DNA of 64,000 nucleotides from contig JBGPBL010000003.1 of NCBI GenBank assembly GCA_041481225.1, positions 5,116-69,115 of the forward strand, given 5' to 3'. The stretch is from Sulfurifustaceae bacterium. GTDB taxonomy: Bacteria; Pseudomonadota; Gammaproteobacteria; Acidiferrobacterales; Sulfurifustaceae. This document shows, piece after piece, positions 57,910 to 64,000 of the stretch (position 1 is the first letter of the stretch; every line of letters begins with the position of its first letter). A program made the position numbers and the translations under genes. Below the pieces are notes generated by a model. The model saw nothing but the letters and a program-made list of their open reading frames with translations. It had not been told where the DNA came from and did not search any database.

Positions 57910-57938
57910 AAATGGGGTTAATGTTCCGAACTTTCAAG
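57910..57938 (-). promoter_or_regulatory. sigma32 (RpoH) promoter upstream of grpE
   Basis: Minus strand CTTGAAA-N14-CCCCATTT, embedded in the last codons of hrcA. Confidence 0.85.
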
Positions 57939-58982
57939 ACGATGGGGGCGCTCACTGGAACTGAGTGCCCCACTCAACAGCCTGGCCGTGATATCAACGA
58001 TAGAGATCACCTGCTCATAGGGTATCCGGGTCGGCCCGATTACCCCGAGCATACCCACGATCTGTCCATCTACCTGATACGGCGCCGTGACCACGCTGCA
58101 TTCGGACAGCGCATCGTAACCGGATTCGCTGCCAATAAAGATTTTCACGCCGCCGGCGCGCATGCTGCGGTCGAGCAGGTGCAAGAGGTCGCGTTTGGTG
58201 GTAAAGGCATCGAACAGCTTGCGCAGCTTGCGCACATCACCCAGTTCCGGGAAATCCATGAGATTGGATTCGCCGCTCACCACCAGATCGTCCGTCTCTT
58301 CTTCCGCATTGAACGCCTGCTGTGCCATATTAACGGCCAGGTTCATGATCCGCTGCATATCGTCACTCGCTTGCTGTATCTCTTTCAACAAGGCGTGTTT
58401 GACGTCGCTCAGATAATCCCCGGTGTAGGTTTCATTGAAATAGTTGGCGGCCTGGACCAGCTCCGCCGACGAGTAATCTCGATCGGCCGCGATCACCCGG
58501 TTATGCACCTGGCCGTCCTGGGTGACAAGGATCACCAGGATGCGGCGGCTGGAGAGATTAATGAAATCGATCTGTCGGAAGGTGGCCTGCTCCTCGCGCC
58601 GCGGCGCCATCACGATGCCGGTAAGTTTGCAGATCTCCGACAGGACATGCGAGGCACTCTCGATCAACTGCTGCGGATTCTGGTGCGAGAGGAATTCCTG
58701 CTCAAGCTTGTGGACTTCGCTCATATCGAGCGGTTTAACCCGGAGCATGGTGTCGACAAACATCCGATAGCCCAATTCCGTGGGTATCCGCCCGGCCGAG
58801 GTGTGGGGAGAGGAAACCAGACCCAATTCTTCCAGGTCCGCCATCACGTTGCGTATGGTCGCCGGACTCAGATCGATCCCGGTCTGGCGCGCCAGCACGC
58901 GCGAACCGACCGGCTGGCCATCGGCGATATACCGTTCGATCAGGGTCTTGAGCAGAACTTCCGCGCGTGCGTTCAGGGACAT
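57918..58982 (-). CDS. hrcA: heat-inducible transcription repressor HrcA
   Basis: GQPVGSR.L, SPATIRNVMADLE.LG, PHTSAGRIPT..GYR.FVD, GVIGPTRIPY. Confidence 0.97.
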   Translation of the reverse strand: MSLNARAEVLLKTLIERYIADGQPVGSRVLARQTGIDLSPATIRNVMADLEELGLVSSPHTSAGRIPTELGYRMFVDTMLRVKPLDMSEVHKLEQEFLSHQNPQQLIESASHVLSEICKLTGIVMAPRREEQATFRQIDFINLSSRRILVILVTQDGQVHNRVIAADRDYSSAELVQAANYFNETYTGDYLSDVKHALLKEIQQASDDMQRIMNLAVNMAQQAFNAEEETDDLVVSGESNLMDFPELGDVRKLRKLFDAFTTKRDLLHLLDRSMRAGGVKIFIGSESGYDALSECSVVTAPYQVDGQIVGMLGVIGPTRIPYEQVISIVDITARLLSGALSSSERPHRLESSEH

Positions 58983-59009
58983 GGAGAAACCTTGCTTTGG
59001 CCCACAATT

Positions 59010-59036
59010 TTAGCACTCTCCTGGCATGAGTGCCAA
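59010..59036 (-). promoter_or_regulatory. CIRCE operator overlapping a sigma70 promoter
   Basis: TTAGCACTC-N9-GAGTGCCAA, one mismatch to consensus. On the minus strand TTGGCA-N18-TAAAAT coincides with it; 28 nt upstream of hrcA. Confidence 0.92.
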
Positions 59037-59150
59037 GCATGCGTGGCTGCCATAAACGCATGCCACCCCTGTCGAAACCGACCCACCGGCTAAAAATCAA
59101 GAACCTCGGGTTTATTTGCCTCCCGGCCAAGAACCAAAAACCCCCGAACC

Positions 59151-59206
59151 GGACAAAATCGCTGGGGACAATTTTGAACAGCCGAAGGCTGGCCCGAAGG
59201 GCGGGA
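59151..59206 (-). repeat. triple-hairpin structured element with two UUCG tetraloops
   Basis: Minus strand GCCC-TTC-GGGC, CAGCC-TTC-GGCTG, then CAAAAT-N11-ATTTTG. Confidence 0.55.
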
Positions 59207-59247
59207 TACAGGGAGGCCCCCGTTATCCGGGAAAATACAACCTGTCC

Positions 59248-59273
59248 CGGATTCCCGCCGGCACGGGAATGAC
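59248..59273. repeat. ATTCCC-N8-GGGAAT (dRS3/REP-like) palindrome
   Basis: CGG-ATTCCC-GCCGGCAC-GGGAAT-GAC. Confidence 0.65.
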
Positions 59274-59389
59274 AAACAAACGAATAGTCCGGCCTTACAT
59301 TAAGATAGAACCTTATCCGGCGCCGAATCGTGGATTGGCCCAAGGTTCCGTGCGTGCTAGCTTAACGCCCTGTTTCCGGAAAAAATGAC

Positions 59390-60268
59390 GTGAAGAAAAT
59401 AATCAAAACAGTCGGCGTGTTCGGAAAATACCGCGATGATTCTATCGGCGGGCACATTGTCCGGCTGACCAAATTTCTGCAGGAGCGCAAGCTGAGCGTC
59501 CTGATGGACGAAGCCACCGCGGACTGGATTGGACAGCCGTTCGGGCCAGGACAGTCACGCGCCGCCATTTGCCGCGAGATCGACCTGGCCATCATTGTCG
59601 GCGGCGACGGCACGTTATTGAACGTCGCGCGCGACCTGGCCGCCTGCAACGTTCCCATCATCGGCGTCAATCTTGGCCGGCTTGGTTTCCTGACCGATAT
59701 CCAGGCCGAACACATGACCGAGGAAATACGCAAGATCCTCGATGGCGACTACCAGACCGAGAAACGACTGCTGCTGCAGGCCGAGGTCATGCGCAAGGGA
59801 AAAATCGTGCACACCGCAAATGCATTCAACGACGTGGCCATTGGCAAAGGTGAACTCGCGCGCATGATCGAGTTTGAAACGTTCATTGGCGGCGAATTCG
59901 TCAACGACACCCGCGGCGATGGCATCATCGTCGCCAGCCCCACCGGATCCACCGCCTACGCCCTGTCTGCCGGCGGCCCCATCCTGCACCCATCACTGCC
60001 GGCGATCGTGATCGTCCCGATCTGTCCGCATACCTTGAGCAACCGGCCCATCGTGGTCGGGGCCGAGAGCATCATTGAAATAGTCATTACCGGCGCCGTC
60101 AATCAGCGCGCCCACGTGACCTTCGACGGTCAGGCGACATACTCACTCGAAGATCACGACCGTATCTACGTACGTCGCTCGGAACACGATGTCGAACTGA
60201 TTCACCCCTCGCGCCGCAGTCACTTCGAGGTGCTGCGTATTAAGCTCGGCTGGGGCGAATCCTACTAA
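59390..60268 (+). CDS. nadK: NAD kinase
   Basis: VGGDGTLL, GVNLGRLGFLT, FNDV, GDGIIVASPTGSTAYALSAGGP, PICPHTLSNRP; GTG start. Confidence 0.96.
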   Translation: MKKIIKTVGVFGKYRDDSIGGHIVRLTKFLQERKLSVLMDEATADWIGQPFGPGQSRAAICREIDLAIIVGGDGTLLNVARDLAACNVPIIGVNLGRLGFLTDIQAEHMTEEIRKILDGDYQTEKRLLLQAEVMRKGKIVHTANAFNDVAIGKGELARMIEFETFIGGEFVNDTRGDGIIVASPTGSTAYALSAGGPILHPSLPAIVIVPICPHTLSNRPIVVGAESIIEIVITGAVNQRAHVTFDGQATYSLEDHDRIYVRRSEHDVELIHPSRRSHFEVLRIKLGWGESY

Positions 60269-60282
60269 CCGGCGGGAACAAC

Positions 60283-61956
60283 ATGTTGCAACACCTTTAT
60301 ATCCGTGACTTCGCCATCGTGCATCAGCTTGAACTCGCCTTCGATTCGGGCTTCAGCGTGCTGACCGGAGAAACTGGCGCCGGCAAGTCCATCCTCATTG
60401 ATGCCCTGGCGCTGGTGCTGGGCGATCGCGCCGACAGCGATGTTATCCGCCACGGTTGCACGCGCGCCGAAGTGACTGCGGACTTCGCGCTCAAACCGTC
60501 ACACGCCGCCGCCAAGTGGCTTAAGCAACATGAGCTCTTCGACGATCAGGAATGTGTGTTGCGGCGCGTGATCGAAGCCGACAAGCCTTCGCGCGGCTTC
60601 ATCAACGGCCGACCGGCACCCATTCAGATGTTGCGCGAGCTAGGGGAGCATCTCGTGGACATCCATGGCCAGCACGAACACCAATCGCTGCTGAAGCGCG
60701 AGGCTCAGCGTGAGATCCTTGACGGTTACGCGGGACTCACGGACACCGTGCAAAATCTGGCCACCCATTACCAGCAATGGAAATCCCTGGAAGACCGACT
60801 GCAAACACTGCGGCACCAGTCCGCTGACCGCGAGGCACGCGTCGAACTGCTGCGCTACCAGGTAAAAGAGCTCGATGCCCTGGTGCTGGAACCCGGCGAG
60901 ATCCCCGTGCTGGAAGAGGAGCACGCGCGCCTGACCAATGGCGCGGAATTGCTCGAAGGCGTACAGGCCATCGCCCAGAGCGTCTACGACGACGATGAAA
61001 ACGCAGTGGCGCGGCAATTGGCCCGCGCCGTCAGCAAACTGGATTCCTTGAGCCAATACGATCCCAGACTTGGCGAAATTACCGCGCTATTAAATGAAGC
61101 GGCGATTCAGGTCGATGAGGCCGGCAGCCGGCTGCGCCATTATCTGGACAACCTCGAACTGGACCCCGAGCGGTTACAGGCTGTCGAGCGCCGGCTCTCG
61201 TCCGTGCACGATCTCTCGCGCAAACACAAGGTCCGCGCCGAGGAGCTGCCGGCCGTACATGAGCGCCTGCGCACGGAACTGAGCGATATCGAGGATCTCG
61301 ACACCAACCTCGGGAAACTGGAAGAAGACATACATAAGGAACGTGATACTTATCTCAAGGTGGCAAAAGAAGTAACACGCCACCGTGAGACGGCCGCCAA
61401 GAAACTCGCCCGTGCCGTGACGAGCGAGATGCAGGAACTGGGCATGACAGGAGGAAACTTTGACGTGGCCCTCGCGCCACTGGCCGACGGAGAAACCAGC
61501 GCCCACGGTAACGAGCGGGTCGAATTCCTGGTCAGCGCCAATTCCGGCCAGCCGGCAAAGCCGCTCAACAAGGTCGCCTCGGGCGGCGAGCTGTCGCGCA
61601 TCAGCCTCGCCTTGCAGGTAGTCATCGCCGGTCTTGGAAGTGTGCCCACGCTGATCTTCGATGAAGTAGATGTCGGCATCGGTGGACGCGTGGCCGAAAT
61701 CGTGGGGCAAAAGCTGCGCGCCTTGGGAAAATCGCGGCAAGTCCTTTGCATCACCCACCTCGCCCAGGTCGCCGCCCAGGGCGAACGACACCTCGCGGTA
61801 AGCAAGCGGGTAGAAGGAAAAATTACCCTGGCCGAAGTCAGGCCGCTCACCGAGCGCGAGCGCACCATGGAAATCGCGCGTATGATTGGCGGCGTGGAAA
61901 TCAGCAAACAGACCCTCGCCCACGCCAAGGACATGCTCTCCCGTGCCTCAGCCTGA
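60283..61956 (+). CDS. recN: DNA repair protein RecN
   Basis: LTGETGAGKSI, DIHGQHEHQ, ASGGELSR, IFDEVD.GIGG, CITHLAQVAA. Confidence 0.98.
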   Translation: MLQHLYIRDFAIVHQLELAFDSGFSVLTGETGAGKSILIDALALVLGDRADSDVIRHGCTRAEVTADFALKPSHAAAKWLKQHELFDDQECVLRRVIEADKPSRGFINGRPAPIQMLRELGEHLVDIHGQHEHQSLLKREAQREILDGYAGLTDTVQNLATHYQQWKSLEDRLQTLRHQSADREARVELLRYQVKELDALVLEPGEIPVLEEEHARLTNGAELLEGVQAIAQSVYDDDENAVARQLARAVSKLDSLSQYDPRLGEITALLNEAAIQVDEAGSRLRHYLDNLELDPERLQAVERRLSSVHDLSRKHKVRAEELPAVHERLRTELSDIEDLDTNLGKLEEDIHKERDTYLKVAKEVTRHRETAAKKLARAVTSEMQELGMTGGNFDVALAPLADGETSAHGNERVEFLVSANSGQPAKPLNKVASGGELSRISLALQVVIAGLGSVPTLIFDEVDVGIGGRVAEIVGQKLRALGKSRQVLCITHLAQVAAQGERHLAVSKRVEGKITLAEVRPLTERERTMEIARMIGGVEISKQTLAHAKDMLSRASA

Positions 61957-62440
61957 TACCACCCACCCCATCGCCAGCACCGCTGCCCGCGTGCGGCCGG
62001 CGGCCATCCACGACGTACCCGAAATTCACCATCTTCTCGAAATCTACGCGGCGCAGGGCAATCTGCTGCCGCGCTCGATGAGCGAGATGTACCGGCACCT
62101 GCGCGATTTCTTTGTGATCGAAATCAATGGCCGTGTCGCGGCCTGCGCGGCGCTTGAGATCTTTACCGAGAACCTGGGCGAGGTCAGAAGCCTCGTGGTG
62201 GCGGATGAGTTCAAAGGGAAAGGTTTCGGACGTCTGTTGGTCGAGCGCGTTGCTGAAGAAGCGCGCACCATCGAACTCAGGCGCCTGATGGCGCTCACCT
62301 ACGTGGCCCCGTTTTTCCATAAGCTCGGCTTCAAAACCGTGCCCAAGGAGACGCTGCCGGAGAAGGTCTGGGGGATCTGCGTGAAGTGCTACAAATTCAA
62401 CAATTGCGACGAAACCGCAGTGCTGCTTGAGTTGCGCTGA
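61943..62440 (+). CDS. GNAT N-acetyltransferase, short ArgA-like type
   Basis: LLPRS..E.Y..LRDFFV, GEVRSLVV, GKGFG, ALTY...FF.KLGF, PEKVWGICVKC..FNNCDE.A. Start set at GTG 61943 (AAGGA upstream, overlaps recN end); exact start uncertain. Confidence 0.8.
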   Translation: MPQPDTTHPIASTAARVRPAAIHDVPEIHHLLEIYAAQGNLLPRSMSEMYRHLRDFFVIEINGRVAACAALEIFTENLGEVRSLVVADEFKGKGFGRLLVERVAEEARTIELRRLMALTYVAPFFHKLGFKTVPKETLPEKVWGICVKCYKFNNCDETAVLLELR

Positions 62441-62507
62441 AACGGCCATAGCTTACATATCCCCGGAATATGCATTAAGCTTATCGCCTGACACGTCAAA
62501 CTAGGGA

Positions 62508-62819
62508 ATGCGGCAACTGCAGCGGACCATCGTGAAATCCAGATCAAAACTCGCCGGCTACCTCCTTTCTCTGCTGCTGCTCGTGGTGGAAGCGGGCGCC
62601 ATGGCGCACGAACTGGAGCACCAACTCCAGAAACCGGATGCGCCCTGTACACAGTGTCTTTTCGCTAACCATCTGGGCAAATCACCCGTTACCGTTCCCT
62701 ACGTGTTCAGTGCGTACGCGCCTGAAACGTATTCCCTGCCGGTATCCCTCCCCGCACCGCGCCGGCATGAAATCACCTCCTACGCAGTGCGTGCCCCTCC
62801 GTTTCACTCCGAAATCTAG
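62508..62819 (+). CDS. DUF2946-like small leader protein: signal/TM, HxxxH, CxxC and C-terminal RAPP
   Basis: LAGYLLSLLLLVVEAGAMA-HELEH...CTQC...YAVRAPPFHSEI*; AGGGA before ATG 62508. Confidence 0.8.
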   Translation: MRQLQRTIVKSRSKLAGYLLSLLLLVVEAGAMAHELEHQLQKPDAPCTQCLFANHLGKSPVTVPYVFSAYAPETYSLPVSLPAPRRHEITSYAVRAPPFHSEI

Positions 62820-62900
62820 TCTCTAAAACGACGCGTCCGGCTGCGCCCGCGACGCGCGCCTTGCTCAGGCAAGGCGTCCATGTACTCGTTGATTTCGGAG
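62807..62900 (+). promoter_or_regulatory. anti-SD/SD pairing between the leader ORF 3' end and the downstream RBS
   Basis: CTCCGAAATC (62807-62816) is the exact reverse complement of GATTTCGGAG (62891-62900, containing GGAG). Inner pairs AACGA/TCGTT and hairpin CGCCTTGC-TCAG-GCAAGGCG (62857-62876). Confidence 0.75.
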
Positions 62901-62907
62901 AAATATT

Positions 62908-64000
62908 ATGTCGTGTAAAATATTTATCACCGCTGCGGTGTTGGCCATTGCCATGCCGACCGCCACATTCGCGACTTCATCCGACAGTCCATCGGCACAG
63001 TTGGAGCCGACCGCCAAGCAGCCAAGCGAACAGCAGCGCCTGCATTCGCTCGAAGAACGCGTACAGCAACTGGAGTCCGCACCCCCTGCGCCAGCTCCCG
63101 CACCAGCCGCTACGGTTAACAGCTTCAACCCCGCCATCTCACTGATCCTTTCGGGCCTGTACACCAACCTCTCGCAGAACCCGGCGAACTACCGCATTAC
63201 CGGTTTTCCGGTGCCATCCAGTGTGGGGGTCGGTCCAAGCCAGCGCGGTTTCAGTCTTAGCGAAAGTGAACTTGGTATCTACGCCAACATCGATCCCTAT
63301 TTTTACGGTGGATTGAATTACTCGATACACCCGGATGATACCGCCTCGGCGGAAGAAGCCTTCATCCAAACGATCGCGCTGTCGCAAGGATTTACCGTCA
63401 AAGCCGGGCGGTTCTTCTCCGGCATCGGCTATCTGAACTCGCAGCACGCGCACGTCTGGGATTTTGTCGATGCTCCCCTTGCTTACCAGGCATTCCTCGG
63501 CACACAGTTCGGTGACGACGCGGTGCAGGTCAAATGGCTGGCGCCGACCGAGACTTTTCTTGAGCTTGGCGCGGAATTCGGTCGGGGGCGACCTTTCCCC
63601 GGAACCAACCGCGACAAGAACGGCTCCGGCGCCGGTACGGTGTACGCGCATGTCGGTGGTGATGTCGGCGTGAGTCAGAGCTGGCGTGCGGGTCTCTCCG
63701 CGCTCGGCACCTCGCCGCAGAATCGCATGTTTTCCGACACCAGTGTTGATGGGCGCACCGTAACCAACGCCTTCAGCGGCGACAGCCGTATCTGGATTGC
63801 CGACTTTGTGTGGAAATATGCGCCGAACGGAAATTCGACCTACACCAACTTCAAACTACAGGCGGAGTATCTGCGCCGGCACGACGACGGCAACCTCAGC
63901 TACGACACCGGCCCCGGTGGGACCAACAGCACGGCGCCGTACGATGCCAAACAATCCGGCTGGTATCTGCAGGGCGTCTATCAGTTCATGCCGTATTGGC
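62908..64000 (+). CDS. outer-membrane metal-uptake receptor-like protein (family often labelled zinc-regulated TonB-dependent receptor), partial
   Basis: Manual translation: MSCKIFITAAVLAIAMPTATFA...RLHSLEERVQQLE...FNPAISLIL...FSLSESEL...IDPYF...EEAFI...KAGRFFSGIGYLNSQHAHVWDFVDAPL. GGAG SD; open to the window end, so absent from the ORF track. Confidence 0.8.
   Translation, partial: MSCKIFITAAVLAIAMPTATFATSSDSPSAQLEPTAKQPSEQQRLHSLEERVQQLESAPPAPAPAPAATVNSFNPAISLILSGLYTNLSQNPANYRITGFPVPSSVGVGPSQRGFSLSESELGIYANIDPYFYGGLNYSIHPDDTASAEEAFIQTIALSQGFTVKAGRFFSGIGYLNSQHAHVWDFVDAPLAYQAFLGTQFGDDAVQVKWLAPTETFLELGAEFGRGRPFPGTNRDKNGSGAGTVYAHVGGDVGVSQSWRAGLSALGTSPQNRMFSDTSVDGRTVTNAFSGDSRIWIADFVWKYAPNGNSTYTNFKLQAEYLRRHDDGNLSYDTGPGGTNSTAPYDAKQSGWYLQGVYQFMPYW

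Follow-up and report, generated by a model that had tools for sequence, protein, structure and literature searches.

The window, i.e. the whole 64,000-nucleotide stretch of Sulfurifustaceae DNA analysed here, ends in a short open reading frame (62508-62819, forward strand) followed on the same strand by the 5' part (364 of 445 codons, 62908-64000) of a gene encoding a porin-like outer-membrane protein (OMP). The remainder of this gene lies past the window, and the full operon was read on locus L001, which has the same sequence. The porin-like gene is the first structural gene of an operon that continues with znuA and an ABC-3 permease gene, and the short reading frame, hereafter called the leader, stands at its head, separated from the OMP gene by 88 nt that are almost wholly structured. 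The order leader, OMP, ZnuA, ABC-3 is also found in L047 and L049, whose upstream synteny differs. A putative promoter, TTACAT-17 nt-TAAGCT, was recognised by eye at 62453-62481 (forward strand), where it overlaps an imperfect inverted repeat (ACATAT...ATATGC), and it is kept as TTGCAT-17-TAGGGT in sister loci. Consensus scans called neither a promoter nor a terminator at the locus. In several lineages the leader begins at most about 15 nt past the stop codon of the preceding gene, and therefore has no space for a promoter of its own.

The preliminary description had called the product of the downstream gene a receptor. TonB-dependent transporters have an N-terminal plug domain and a 22-strand barrel, roughly 700 amino acids in all. 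The OMP has 445 amino acids and did not match the Pfam Plug or TonB_dep_Rec profiles even at E<=1, and its relatives match PF07642 (BBP2). The best structural matches of its AF2 model (pLDDT 59.5) were porins of 16-18 strands, the first TonB-dependent transporter appearing at rank 42 with a TM score of 0.23. The TonB-dependent assignment was therefore rejected in favour of a porin-like barrel devoid of a plug.

The leader encodes 103 amino acids (MRQLQRTIVKSRSKLAGYLLSLLLLVVEAGAMAHELEHQLQKPDAPCTQCLFANH...AVRAPPFHSEI*) if read from the ATG at 62508. The start codon is uncertain, since in the close relatives L020-L023 this ATG runs into a stop codon or a frameshift, and the conserved candidate GTG at 62532, giving 95 amino acids, may be used instead. 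Inspection of the N terminus revealed a K/R-rich start, a 13-residue hydrophobic run within the segment L15-A33 (62550-62606, forward strand), and AMA just before H34, features of a putative export signal or Nin-Cout membrane anchor. An N-terminal export signal of such kind has been reported for more than 95% of DUF2946 proteins (PMC9426467). A candidate metal-binding module, H34-x3-H38-x8-C47-x2-C50-x4-H55 (62607-62672, forward strand), follows, in which HELEH forms residues 34-38 and CTQC, a CxxC motif, residues 47-50. The putative arrest motif RAPP (R95-P98, codons cgt gcc cct ccg at 62790-62801, forward strand) lies 44 residues past C50, and five further codons (FHSEI) lead to the TAG at 62817-62819. 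HELEH, CTQC and RAPP, the last of them five codons ahead of the stop, had been described earlier, and all proved exact to the base.

Among 29 close homologues the residues H34, H38, C47, C50, H55 and the RAPP motif are invariant. In the wider family, sampled by 150 representatives, C47 never varies, at least 90% conservation is seen at H34 and H38, and the members inspected have either C or H at position 50. RAPP is likewise invariant in the family, with synonymous drift at its third codon positions, and the residues between CxxC and RAPP, as well as those past RAPP, vary freely among the homologues. A word-based search with P0186 returned 4 proteins only; a profile search returned 164 clusters of proteins of about 100 amino acids with the same layout. 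Comparison with Pfam PF11162 (DUF2946) gave 17.4 bits (E 0.008), below the gathering cut-off of 23.7, with leader residues 29-98 aligned on profile positions 46-117, a span that passes through CxxC and reaches RAPP. Similar sub-threshold matches to DUF2946 were obtained for 61 of the 150 representatives, and sub-threshold matches to DUF2607 for 19 of the 150, one of which spans the whole profile up to RAPP. By its architecture, with a Pfam match that is sub-threshold, the leader is a putative arrest peptide at the periphery of the DUF2946/CruR type.

The leader shares several features with CruR of Bordetella pertussis (Bp2923; PMC9426467). Both are small first genes of a metal-uptake operon, with an N-terminal export signal that in the leader is putative and was recognised by eye. 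In both, CxxC is separated from RAPP, a few codons from the stop, by a fixed distance of about 45 residues (44 in the leader, 45±2 in CruR; PMC9426467), and in both a long structured intergenic region precedes an outer-membrane uptake gene. The leader differs from CruR in its sub-threshold Pfam match, its extra invariant His, its zinc-uptake context and its anti-SD tail. CruR is longer (145 amino acids against 103), senses Cu and acts through Rho-dependent termination, has no anti-SD helix described, and precedes a true TonB-dependent transporter gene.

The tail of the leader sequence contains an anti-SD arm, CTCCGAAATC (62807-62816, forward strand), which lies within the codons for H-S-E-I and ends at the stop codon. 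It is the exact reverse complement of the SD arm GATTTCGGAG (62891-62900, forward strand), whose GGAG (62897-62900) stands 7 nt ahead of the OMP ATG at 62908. The minimum-energy fold of 62780-62925 places this 10-bp helix around two GC-rich hairpins (62833-62855 and 62856-62877, forward strand) as an intergenic three-way structure, at -49.1 kcal/mol (z = -3.2; 0 of 200 shuffles equally stable). The perfect pairing and the further inner stems noticed in the preliminary description were thus both borne out. Each inner hairpin shows compensatory changes in 4 of its 7 pairs. The second, GCCTTGC...GCAAGGC, has no U-tract and was therefore rejected as an intrinsic terminator. A search of 62300-63100 against Rfam gave no match at E<=1.

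RNAalifold, run on a 29-sequence alignment, called the inner hairpins only, and the outer helix was therefore tested explicitly. Conservation among homologues, on which the preliminary description had let its reading depend, was found: the outer helix recurs across 29 distinct homologous loci, where 88% of cells are paired, and the SD is predicted to be paired in 35 of 38 loci. The covariation that it had proposed to look for was seen as two compensatory pairs, G-C to A-U in L026 and C-G to U-A in L015, and as a lineage-specific match of tail and SD. In the main clade, conservation of the helix outweighs covariation, with 2 double changes as compared to about 30 mismatched cells. The codons that hold the anti-SD are almost frozen (Ser TCC in 26/26, Glu GAA in 19/20, Ile ATC in 24/26), with third-position entropies of 0.00, 0.29 and 0.39 bits for S-E-I as against 1.57-1.71 bits for the A-P-P codons of RAPP, and GAUUUC adjoining the SD is conserved as well. 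Across 12 lineages with differing tail peptides, every tail carries the complement of its own SD region, for example CTCCCCG/CGGGGAG, CTCCTTCA/TGAAGGAG, TTCTCCACG/CGTGGAGAA and TCTCTCC/GGAGAGA, and tails paired with their own SD gave a mean of -16.1 kcal/mol, as compared to -11.1 kcal/mol for swapped pairs (permutation p = 2e-5). The complementarity is weak in L041. Judged from these sequence comparisons, the anti-SD/SD helix is under selection at the RNA level. A coding tail rich in Pro and Ser and a purine-rich SD could in principle be complementary by chance, for CUCC easily comes from Pro, Ser and Leu codons and the RAPP codons themselves contain CCUCC (62796-62800). In view of the fold z-score, the proportion of paired cells, the frozen synonymous sites, the tail/SD permutation result and the position-specific masks described below, we consider such an origin extremely improbable.

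Cryo-EM of ApdA and ApdP placed the stalled ribosome with the first Pro codon of RAPP in the P site (PMC10951233), and the arrest position of CruR has been mapped by toeprint (PMC12992588). Modelled on this geometry, a ribosome stalled with the first Pro in the P site would cover the CUCCG of the anti-SD, in agreement with the earlier proposal that the stalled ribosome masks this arm. In L017 and L018 the anti-SD begins about 20 nt past the R codon, where a stalled ribosome would only just reach it. Imposing the stalled ribosome as a folding constraint raised the unpaired probability of the SD only from 0.08 to 0.27, with no rise in the window, and when 30 nt of upstream mRNA were added the opening cost in the window merely fell from 12.3 to 10.0 kcal/mol. 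With the upstream mRNA left free, CCUCC at 62776-62780 replaces the masked anti-SD in silico and the RBS stays closed. Because these measures showed little change, we turned to the opening cost, i.e. the free energy required to open the RBS, computed on RNA from the R codon on and controlled with sliding masks. With a footprint reaching +15 from the P-site Pro codon, the mean cost dropped from 12.2 to 5.5 kcal/mol, and that in the window from 11.3 to 5.3 kcal/mol; the direction of this drop is partly trivial, so that its size and position-specificity alone carry weight. In the window the cost fell only with masks over the leader tail. About 5 kcal/mol of structure is left even in this restricted footprint model.

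A ribosome that simply reads to the stop codon at 62817-62819 would also open the helix, so translational coupling in the absence of regulated stalling would work, and the leader could then be a small protein with its own role, such as a membrane or periplasmic transporter accessory. In Vibrio, the Zur-regulated zrg operon encodes ZrgD (DUF2607), which counts among the listed components of the zrg system (PMC9820375, PMC9817125); this protein has about 100 amino acids and one N-terminal hydrophobic helix, its gene adjoins zrgA, and the leader has a putative export or anchor signal. The position of zrgD before zrgA is exactly that of relatives of the leader, the likeness being one of position, size and sub-threshold DUF2607 matches. 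The zrgA operon of Aeromonas caviae is headed by a leader-like ORF with CxxC-44-RAPP, which scores as DUF2946 and not as DUF2607; hhalign of the leader profile against it gave just 20% probability, and the link is one of architecture and gene position. Its gap is 36 nt long and AT-rich, with no convincing anti-SD, so that not every member of the superfamily has the helix. No such leader was seen in the zrgA operons of P. aeruginosa and Phaeobacter. An accessory protein would hardly explain why lineages share an invariant RAPP at one set distance from CxxC while the residues between and after these motifs drift; moreover, deletion of zrgD gave no growth phenotype (PMC9820375) and CruR is thought to be short-lived. 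We therefore regard an accessory role with mere coupling as improbable.

The output of the leader might instead be that demonstrated for its closest characterised RAPP relative, CruR (PMC9426467), where the stalled ribosome shields a Rho-utilisation site and metal-triggered release leads to Rho termination before the outer-membrane gene, with the helix secondary or acting jointly. The last 80 nt of the leader region (62748-62827), with 41% C, 17.5% G, a C/G ratio of 2.35 and 21 YC dinucleotides, are the most C-rich and G-poor stretch of the locus and resemble the 'C>G bubble' in which the cruR rut site was mapped, which keeps a Rho mechanism in consideration. This C-richness follows partly from Pro and Ala codons, and the intergenic region has 88 nt, almost all structured, as compared to 162 nt in B. 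pertussis. Protection from Rho also leaves unexplained the frozen synonymous sites of S-E-I, the conserved GAUUUC beside the SD and the lineage-specific match of tail and SD. Rho termination and an anti-SD switch are not mutually exclusive; as the main output, termination appears unlikely.

The genes of the operon and their relatives bear on the identity of the metal. Alignment of the binding protein with Synechocystis ZnuA places a His at each of the three His ligand positions, and its best solved relatives are all zinc-binding proteins; the matches of binding protein and permease to the NCBIfam models AztC/AztB/ZnuB lie far under the cut-offs. The operon has no ATPase gene, as in omr-znuA2-znuB2 of Vibrio, whose OMP is 33% identical over 84% of the OMP (E 5e-51), the three-gene order being the same in V. 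campbellii. Zinc starvation induces this cluster 283- to 1033-fold in V. parahaemolyticus, where it forms part of the Zur regulon. Two TGTTATnnnATAACA Zur boxes are present at the omr cluster of V. campbellii; none of this Vibrio type was found within 3 mismatches near 62440-62510, and the Zur box of this lineage may be of another type. A Fur-family gene downstream in sister loci was considered as Zur and rejected, since it scores as Fur proper, with 204 bits at a cut-off of 146, and lies outside the operon. Relatives of the leader precede ZrgA zinc-uptake operons, and in sister lineages the neighbouring gene upstream encodes a ZIP transporter.

The preliminary description had favoured Zn, Ni or Co over Cu. 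Its preference against Cu stood and Zn was upheld by the operon, the ZnuA ligands and the Zur-regulated cluster, while Ni and Co were dropped, as HupE/UreJ or other Ni/Co genes were found in none of the sampled contexts. Binding proteins of cluster A-I can have Mn or Fe as their substrate as well, and Cu(I) binds well to Cys/His sites. The same switch could accordingly sense copper, as CruR and CutF do, or another metal, if the operon is not specific for zinc: Cu is the metal to which all characterised DUF2946 leaders respond, a CxxC with His suits Cu(I), H34 would become an N-terminal His after signal cleavage, and the NCBIfam matches are low as stated. Copper marker genes were found in none of the 11 sampled contexts, and the ligand positions and solved relatives of the binding protein, the zinc-starvation response of the homologous Vibrio cluster, the ZrgA operons and the ZIP neighbour all speak against such a signal, which we hold to be quite unlikely. 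Because the OMP-ZnuA-ABC-3 operon matches omr-znuA2-znuB2 and leader relatives sit before ZrgA operons, zinc, rather than Ni/Co or Cu, is the likely signal on the sequence evidence.

The core of the earlier reading, a CruR-like, metal-binding RAPP arrest peptide with an anti-SD tail, passed all the in-silico tests that were run. Our main reading, to which we give a probability of roughly 55%, is that the leader is a metal-sensing arrest peptide of the DUF2946 (CruR/CutF) superfamily that controls translation initiation of the zinc-uptake operon. In the OFF state, with no ribosome on the last leader codons, CUCCGAAAUC (62807-62816) would pair with GAUUUCGGAG (62891-62900), the two conserved hairpins would bring the arms together, and the OMP RBS would be closed. 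In the ON state a ribosome translating the leader would stall at RAPP with Pro97 in the P site and Pro98 in the A site, and its mRNA channel would cover CUCCG of the anti-SD, so that GGAG would be freed and 30S subunits could start on the OMP gene. At this stall the H34/H38/C47/C50/H55 module would be 42-63 residues from the peptidyl-transferase centre, and therefore just out of the exit tunnel. Metal, most likely Zn(II), may compact the H34-H55 module, with or without pulling by the translocon, and this compaction would lift the arrest, the effect that copper has on CruR; the freed ribosome would terminate five codons on, the helix would re-form, and uptake would be off at sufficient zinc. 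The metal may be sensed in the cytoplasm or in the periplasm.

That metal would relieve rather than induce the stall is a polarity borrowed from CruR, in which the stall is required for downstream expression (arrest shown in PMC12992588), so that the same polarity, metal turning uptake off, is expected here; the signal peptide of CruR is dispensable. The polarity is opposite in CutF of Rhodobacter capsulatus (DUF2946-like; PMC9973294; bioRxiv 10.1101/2025.02.05.636593), where Cu induces the stall and turns on a detoxifying oxidase, and where both EF-P and the signal peptide are needed. CutF carries CxxxC and PPP, as against CTQC (CxxC) and RAPP in the leader. It resembles the present proposal in that an SD-shielding mRNA structure is opened by a stalled ribosome, and an SD-occluding structure that would open at the C-terminal stall site is predicted here too, in silico and by comparison. 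Unmasking of an SD by a stalled DUF2946 peptide is therefore not new, since CutF has already been described. In SecM, ApdA and ApdP (PMC7897499, PMC10951233) stalling also unmasks a downstream RBS and force on the nascent chain frees the arrest; unlike the leader, these peptides sense Sec/YidC activity, not metal, and control genes of the protein-localisation machinery. The physical principle proposed for the leader has a counterpart in an engineered construct, as opposed to a natural regulator. In these ADR1a experiments on the SecM arrest, a zinc finger, i.e. a small Cys/His domain whose folding close to the exit of the tunnel depends on Zn(II), reportedly releases the C-terminal arrest.

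The leader appears to be related to the copper-sensing peptides CruR and CutF but linked to zinc, because a putative metal-binding RAPP peptide precedes a probable zinc-uptake operon and its tail pairs with the next RBS. It would join a sensor/arrest module of CruR type to an SD-shielding output of CutF type. The current view assigns the control of bacterial zinc uptake almost wholly to the transcription factor Zur. We know of no zinc riboswitch, and to our knowledge the published metal-sensing arrest peptides are all copper-linked, Ni/Co having merely been suggested. We tentatively propose, at somewhat less than even confidence, a zinc-sensing nascent peptide whose Cys/His module would fold on Zn(II) at the ribosome exit, release the RAPP arrest and close the anti-SD switch. 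Among regulators of uptake genes it would be the first zinc sensor to act post-transcriptionally, working alongside or instead of Zur, and would also explain ZrgD. The family is compact (leader of about 100 amino acids, intergenic region of about 90 nt) and therefore suited to toeprinting and reporters. If true, the proposal would give a concrete function to genes in the ZrgD position, whose role is unexplained in the literature searched, and with a zinc-linked subfamily the sensing of metals by nascent chains would reach a second essential metal.

The leader, a small forward-strand ORF at 62508-62819 (103 aa), has a basic, hydrophobic N-terminus, HELEH at residues 34-38, CTQC at residues 47-50 and RAPP encoded at 62790-62801, and ends in FHSEI followed by TAG. 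The preliminary description had placed HELEH, CTQC and RAPP in this ORF, and re-reading of the sequence bore this out. Since the ATG at 62508 runs into a stop or frameshift in the closest relatives (homologous loci L020-L023), the true start is probably GTG 62532, a conserved candidate with little or no SD, where L010 and L027 carry ATG. A promoter-like element, TTACAT-17-TAAGCT (62453-62481), is kept as TTGCAT-17-TAGGGT in sister loci and is overlapped by an imperfect inverted repeat, ACATAT...ATATGC, which could be an operator. No Vibrio-type Zur box was found ahead of the leader, and the repeat is not of that type. Further upstream (57918-62440), the housekeeping genes hrcA (minus strand), NAD kinase, recN and a GNAT/ArgA-like acetyltransferase lie in conserved synteny; a nearby Fur-family gene, downstream in sister loci, proved to be Fur proper, not Zur, and is not part of the operon. 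In distant lineages (L011, L013, L033, L036-L041), no more than about 15 nt separate the leader start from the stop codon of the GNAT (N-acetyltransferase) gene before it, leaving no space for a promoter of its own, and therefore control there must be largely post-transcriptional.

The Pfam DUF2946 match of the leader was sub-threshold (17.4 versus 23.7 bits), with the alignment spanning the His/Cys region to RAPP. A word-based search revealed 29 homologues in Sulfuricaulis-like Gammaproteobacteria, in all of which H34, H38, C47, C50, H55 and RAPP were invariant. When 1.8 billion representative proteins were searched with a profile, the family grew to 164 clusters of ~100-aa proteins sharing the leader layout. 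In these, C47 never varies, nor does the second Pro of RAPP, while R95 and P97 are almost fixed; conservation of H34 and H38 is at least 90%, and among the members shown, position 50 holds either C or H. Weak matches to DUF2946 and to DUF2607 (ZrgD family) were obtained for 61 and 19 of 150 family representatives, respectively. CruR, the copper arrest leader of Bordetella pertussis, heads metal operons, and its family has been defined by an export signal together with CxxC and, after a spacer of 45±2 residues, a C-terminal RAPP (PMC9426467); the corresponding spacer in our leader is 44 residues. From these weak matches and the common layout, the leader is, at the level of sequence, a peripheral branch of the superfamily comprising CruR and CutF, the DUF2946-like leader of Rhodobacter capsulatus (PMC9973294; bioRxiv 10.1101/2025.02.05.636593).

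The window stops within the gene after the leader. L001, a longer contig that includes this sequence, and sister contigs show the order leader, 445-aa protein (starting at ATG 62908), ZnuA (PF01297) and ABC-3 permease, with a ZIP gene immediately upstream in sister lineages. The 445-aa protein, called a receptor in the preliminary description, is not a TonB-dependent transporter, as neither Plug nor barrel Pfam domains matched at E<=1. Its relatives match PF07642 (porin-like BBP2), and the best structural matches of a modest AF2 model (pLDDT 59.5) were 16-18-strand porins; we refer to it as a porin-like outer-membrane protein (OMP). The best solved relatives of the binding protein are zinc-binding proteins, and alignment places His at all three ZnuA ligand positions. 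No ATPase gene was present in the operon (L001 10401-12874; L002 10406-13428; Vibrio campbellii L048 3929-6785), and the gene for the energising subunit must therefore lie outside it.

The anti-SD arm CTCCGAAATC (62807-62816) was proposed earlier to pair perfectly with the SD arm GATTTCGGAG (62891-62900), which includes GGAG 7 nt ahead of ATG 62908; the complementarity is indeed exact. In the minimum-energy fold of 62780-62925 (-49.1 kcal/mol, z = -3.2), this helix surrounds two GC-rich hairpins. The leader region had no Rfam match. Conservation in homologous loci agreed with the proposal: across 29 distinct tail-plus-intergenic sequences, 88% of the outer-helix cells are paired, two pairs show clean compensation (G-C to A-U in L026, C-G to U-A in L015), and the inner hairpins covary strongly (4 of 7 pairs in each). 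RNAalifold, run by itself, did not recover the outer helix. The anti-SD codons for Ser-Glu-Ile are frozen (TCC 26/26, GAA 19/20, ATC 24/26; 0.00-0.39 bits at third positions), while the third positions of the RAPP Ala-Pro-Pro codons, an internal coding control, drift freely (1.57-1.71 bits); selection here acts on the RNA and not on the peptide. In 12 lineages with differing post-RAPP peptides, every tail bears the complement of its own SD region, pairing at -16.1 kcal/mol on average versus -11.1 when swapped (permutation p = 2e-5), and the SD is predicted to be paired in 35 of 38 loci. Chance complementarity of tail and SD is thus extremely improbable. Simple translational coupling, with no regulated stalling, is also improbable, if somewhat less so.

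Cryo-EM of ApdA/ApdP (PMC10951233) and a toeprint on CruR (PMC12992588) would, by analogy, place the P site of a stalled ribosome at 62796-62798, and a footprint to +15 would cover CUCCG of the anti-SD. With this footprint modelled, the free-energy cost of opening the RBS (-14 to +3) in the window was 5.3 instead of 11.3 kcal/mol, and the mean in 18 loci 5.5 instead of 12.2 kcal/mol, with ~5 kcal/mol of structure retained in the stalled model and a poorer geometric fit in L017/L018 and L041; control masks elsewhere in the window's intergenic region left the cost at 10-12 kcal/mol. Anti-SD-like CCUCC pentamers also occur at 62776-62780 and, within the RAPP codons, at 62796-62800. With upstream mRNA left free, the former can replace the masked anti-SD in silico.

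We therefore favour, with a probability of about 0.55, a metal-responsive arrest peptide whose stall would open the anti-SD switch of a zinc-uptake operon; binding of Zn(II) by the emerged H/H/C/C/H module would release the stall and shut off uptake, a polarity borrowed from CruR. The anatomy of the leader is well supported, and its function we infer. In CruR, sensor and arrest motif are laid out alike, but the signal is Cu and the output runs through Rho, whereas CutF shares the proposed SD-shielding output but has CxxxC and PPP, and its stall is induced by Cu. A CruR-type Rho component at the leader is less likely but plausible, the 62748-62827 stretch being 41% C and 17.5% G; no intrinsic terminator was predicted.

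Copper as the ligand, as in CruR and CutF, appears less probable still: copper marker genes were found in none of 11 genomic contexts sampled from diverse leader-family members, and in these contexts the family goes with zinc genes. The same OMP family follows the leader, with or without ZnuA and ABC-3, in L042, L044, L045, L047, L049 and L050, and such contexts include loci of unrelated upstream synteny; in L051, a leader relative precedes a true TonB-dependent transporter. In L045/L046 (3654-6038), the leader stands before a shorter 289-aa OMP-like ORF, and genes for a guanylate-cyclase-domain protein and cytochrome b561 replace ZnuA and ABC-3. The P0186 protein's locus and L052 carry ZrgA, an ATPase, a MacB-type permease and DUF3299, i.e. 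the zrg zinc-uptake system. Similarly, zrgA of Aeromonas caviae is directly preceded by a 104-aa ORF that lacks annotation (NZ_AP026896.1; L053 3042-3356); its N-terminus is hydrophobic, and it carries HGHTCTLC, with RAPP placed exactly 44 residues past CxxC; no clear anti-SD was found in the AT-rich 36-nt gap to zrgA. The Vibrio literature gives ZrgD 101 aa, a single helix and no assigned function, and its equivalence to the leader is a lead, not a result. Ni/Co has been proposed for His-only subfamilies. We found no literature linking RAPP/arrest peptides, CruR or CutF to zinc uptake, the only notable co-mention of DUF2946 and zinc being for a gene that lies ahead of the czrCBA efflux genes in Caulobacter.

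The same three-gene cluster in V. parahaemolyticus, omr-znuA2-znuB2, belongs to the Zur regulon and is induced 1033-, 543- and 283-fold by zinc limitation. The V. campbellii homologue (33% identity, E 5e-51) shares its gene order with the window operon, and two Zur-box-like TGTTATnnnATAACA palindromes, with no leader ORF found, precede its OMP gene (L048 3840-3915). The leader and the Zur box may substitute for one another in controlling this operon.
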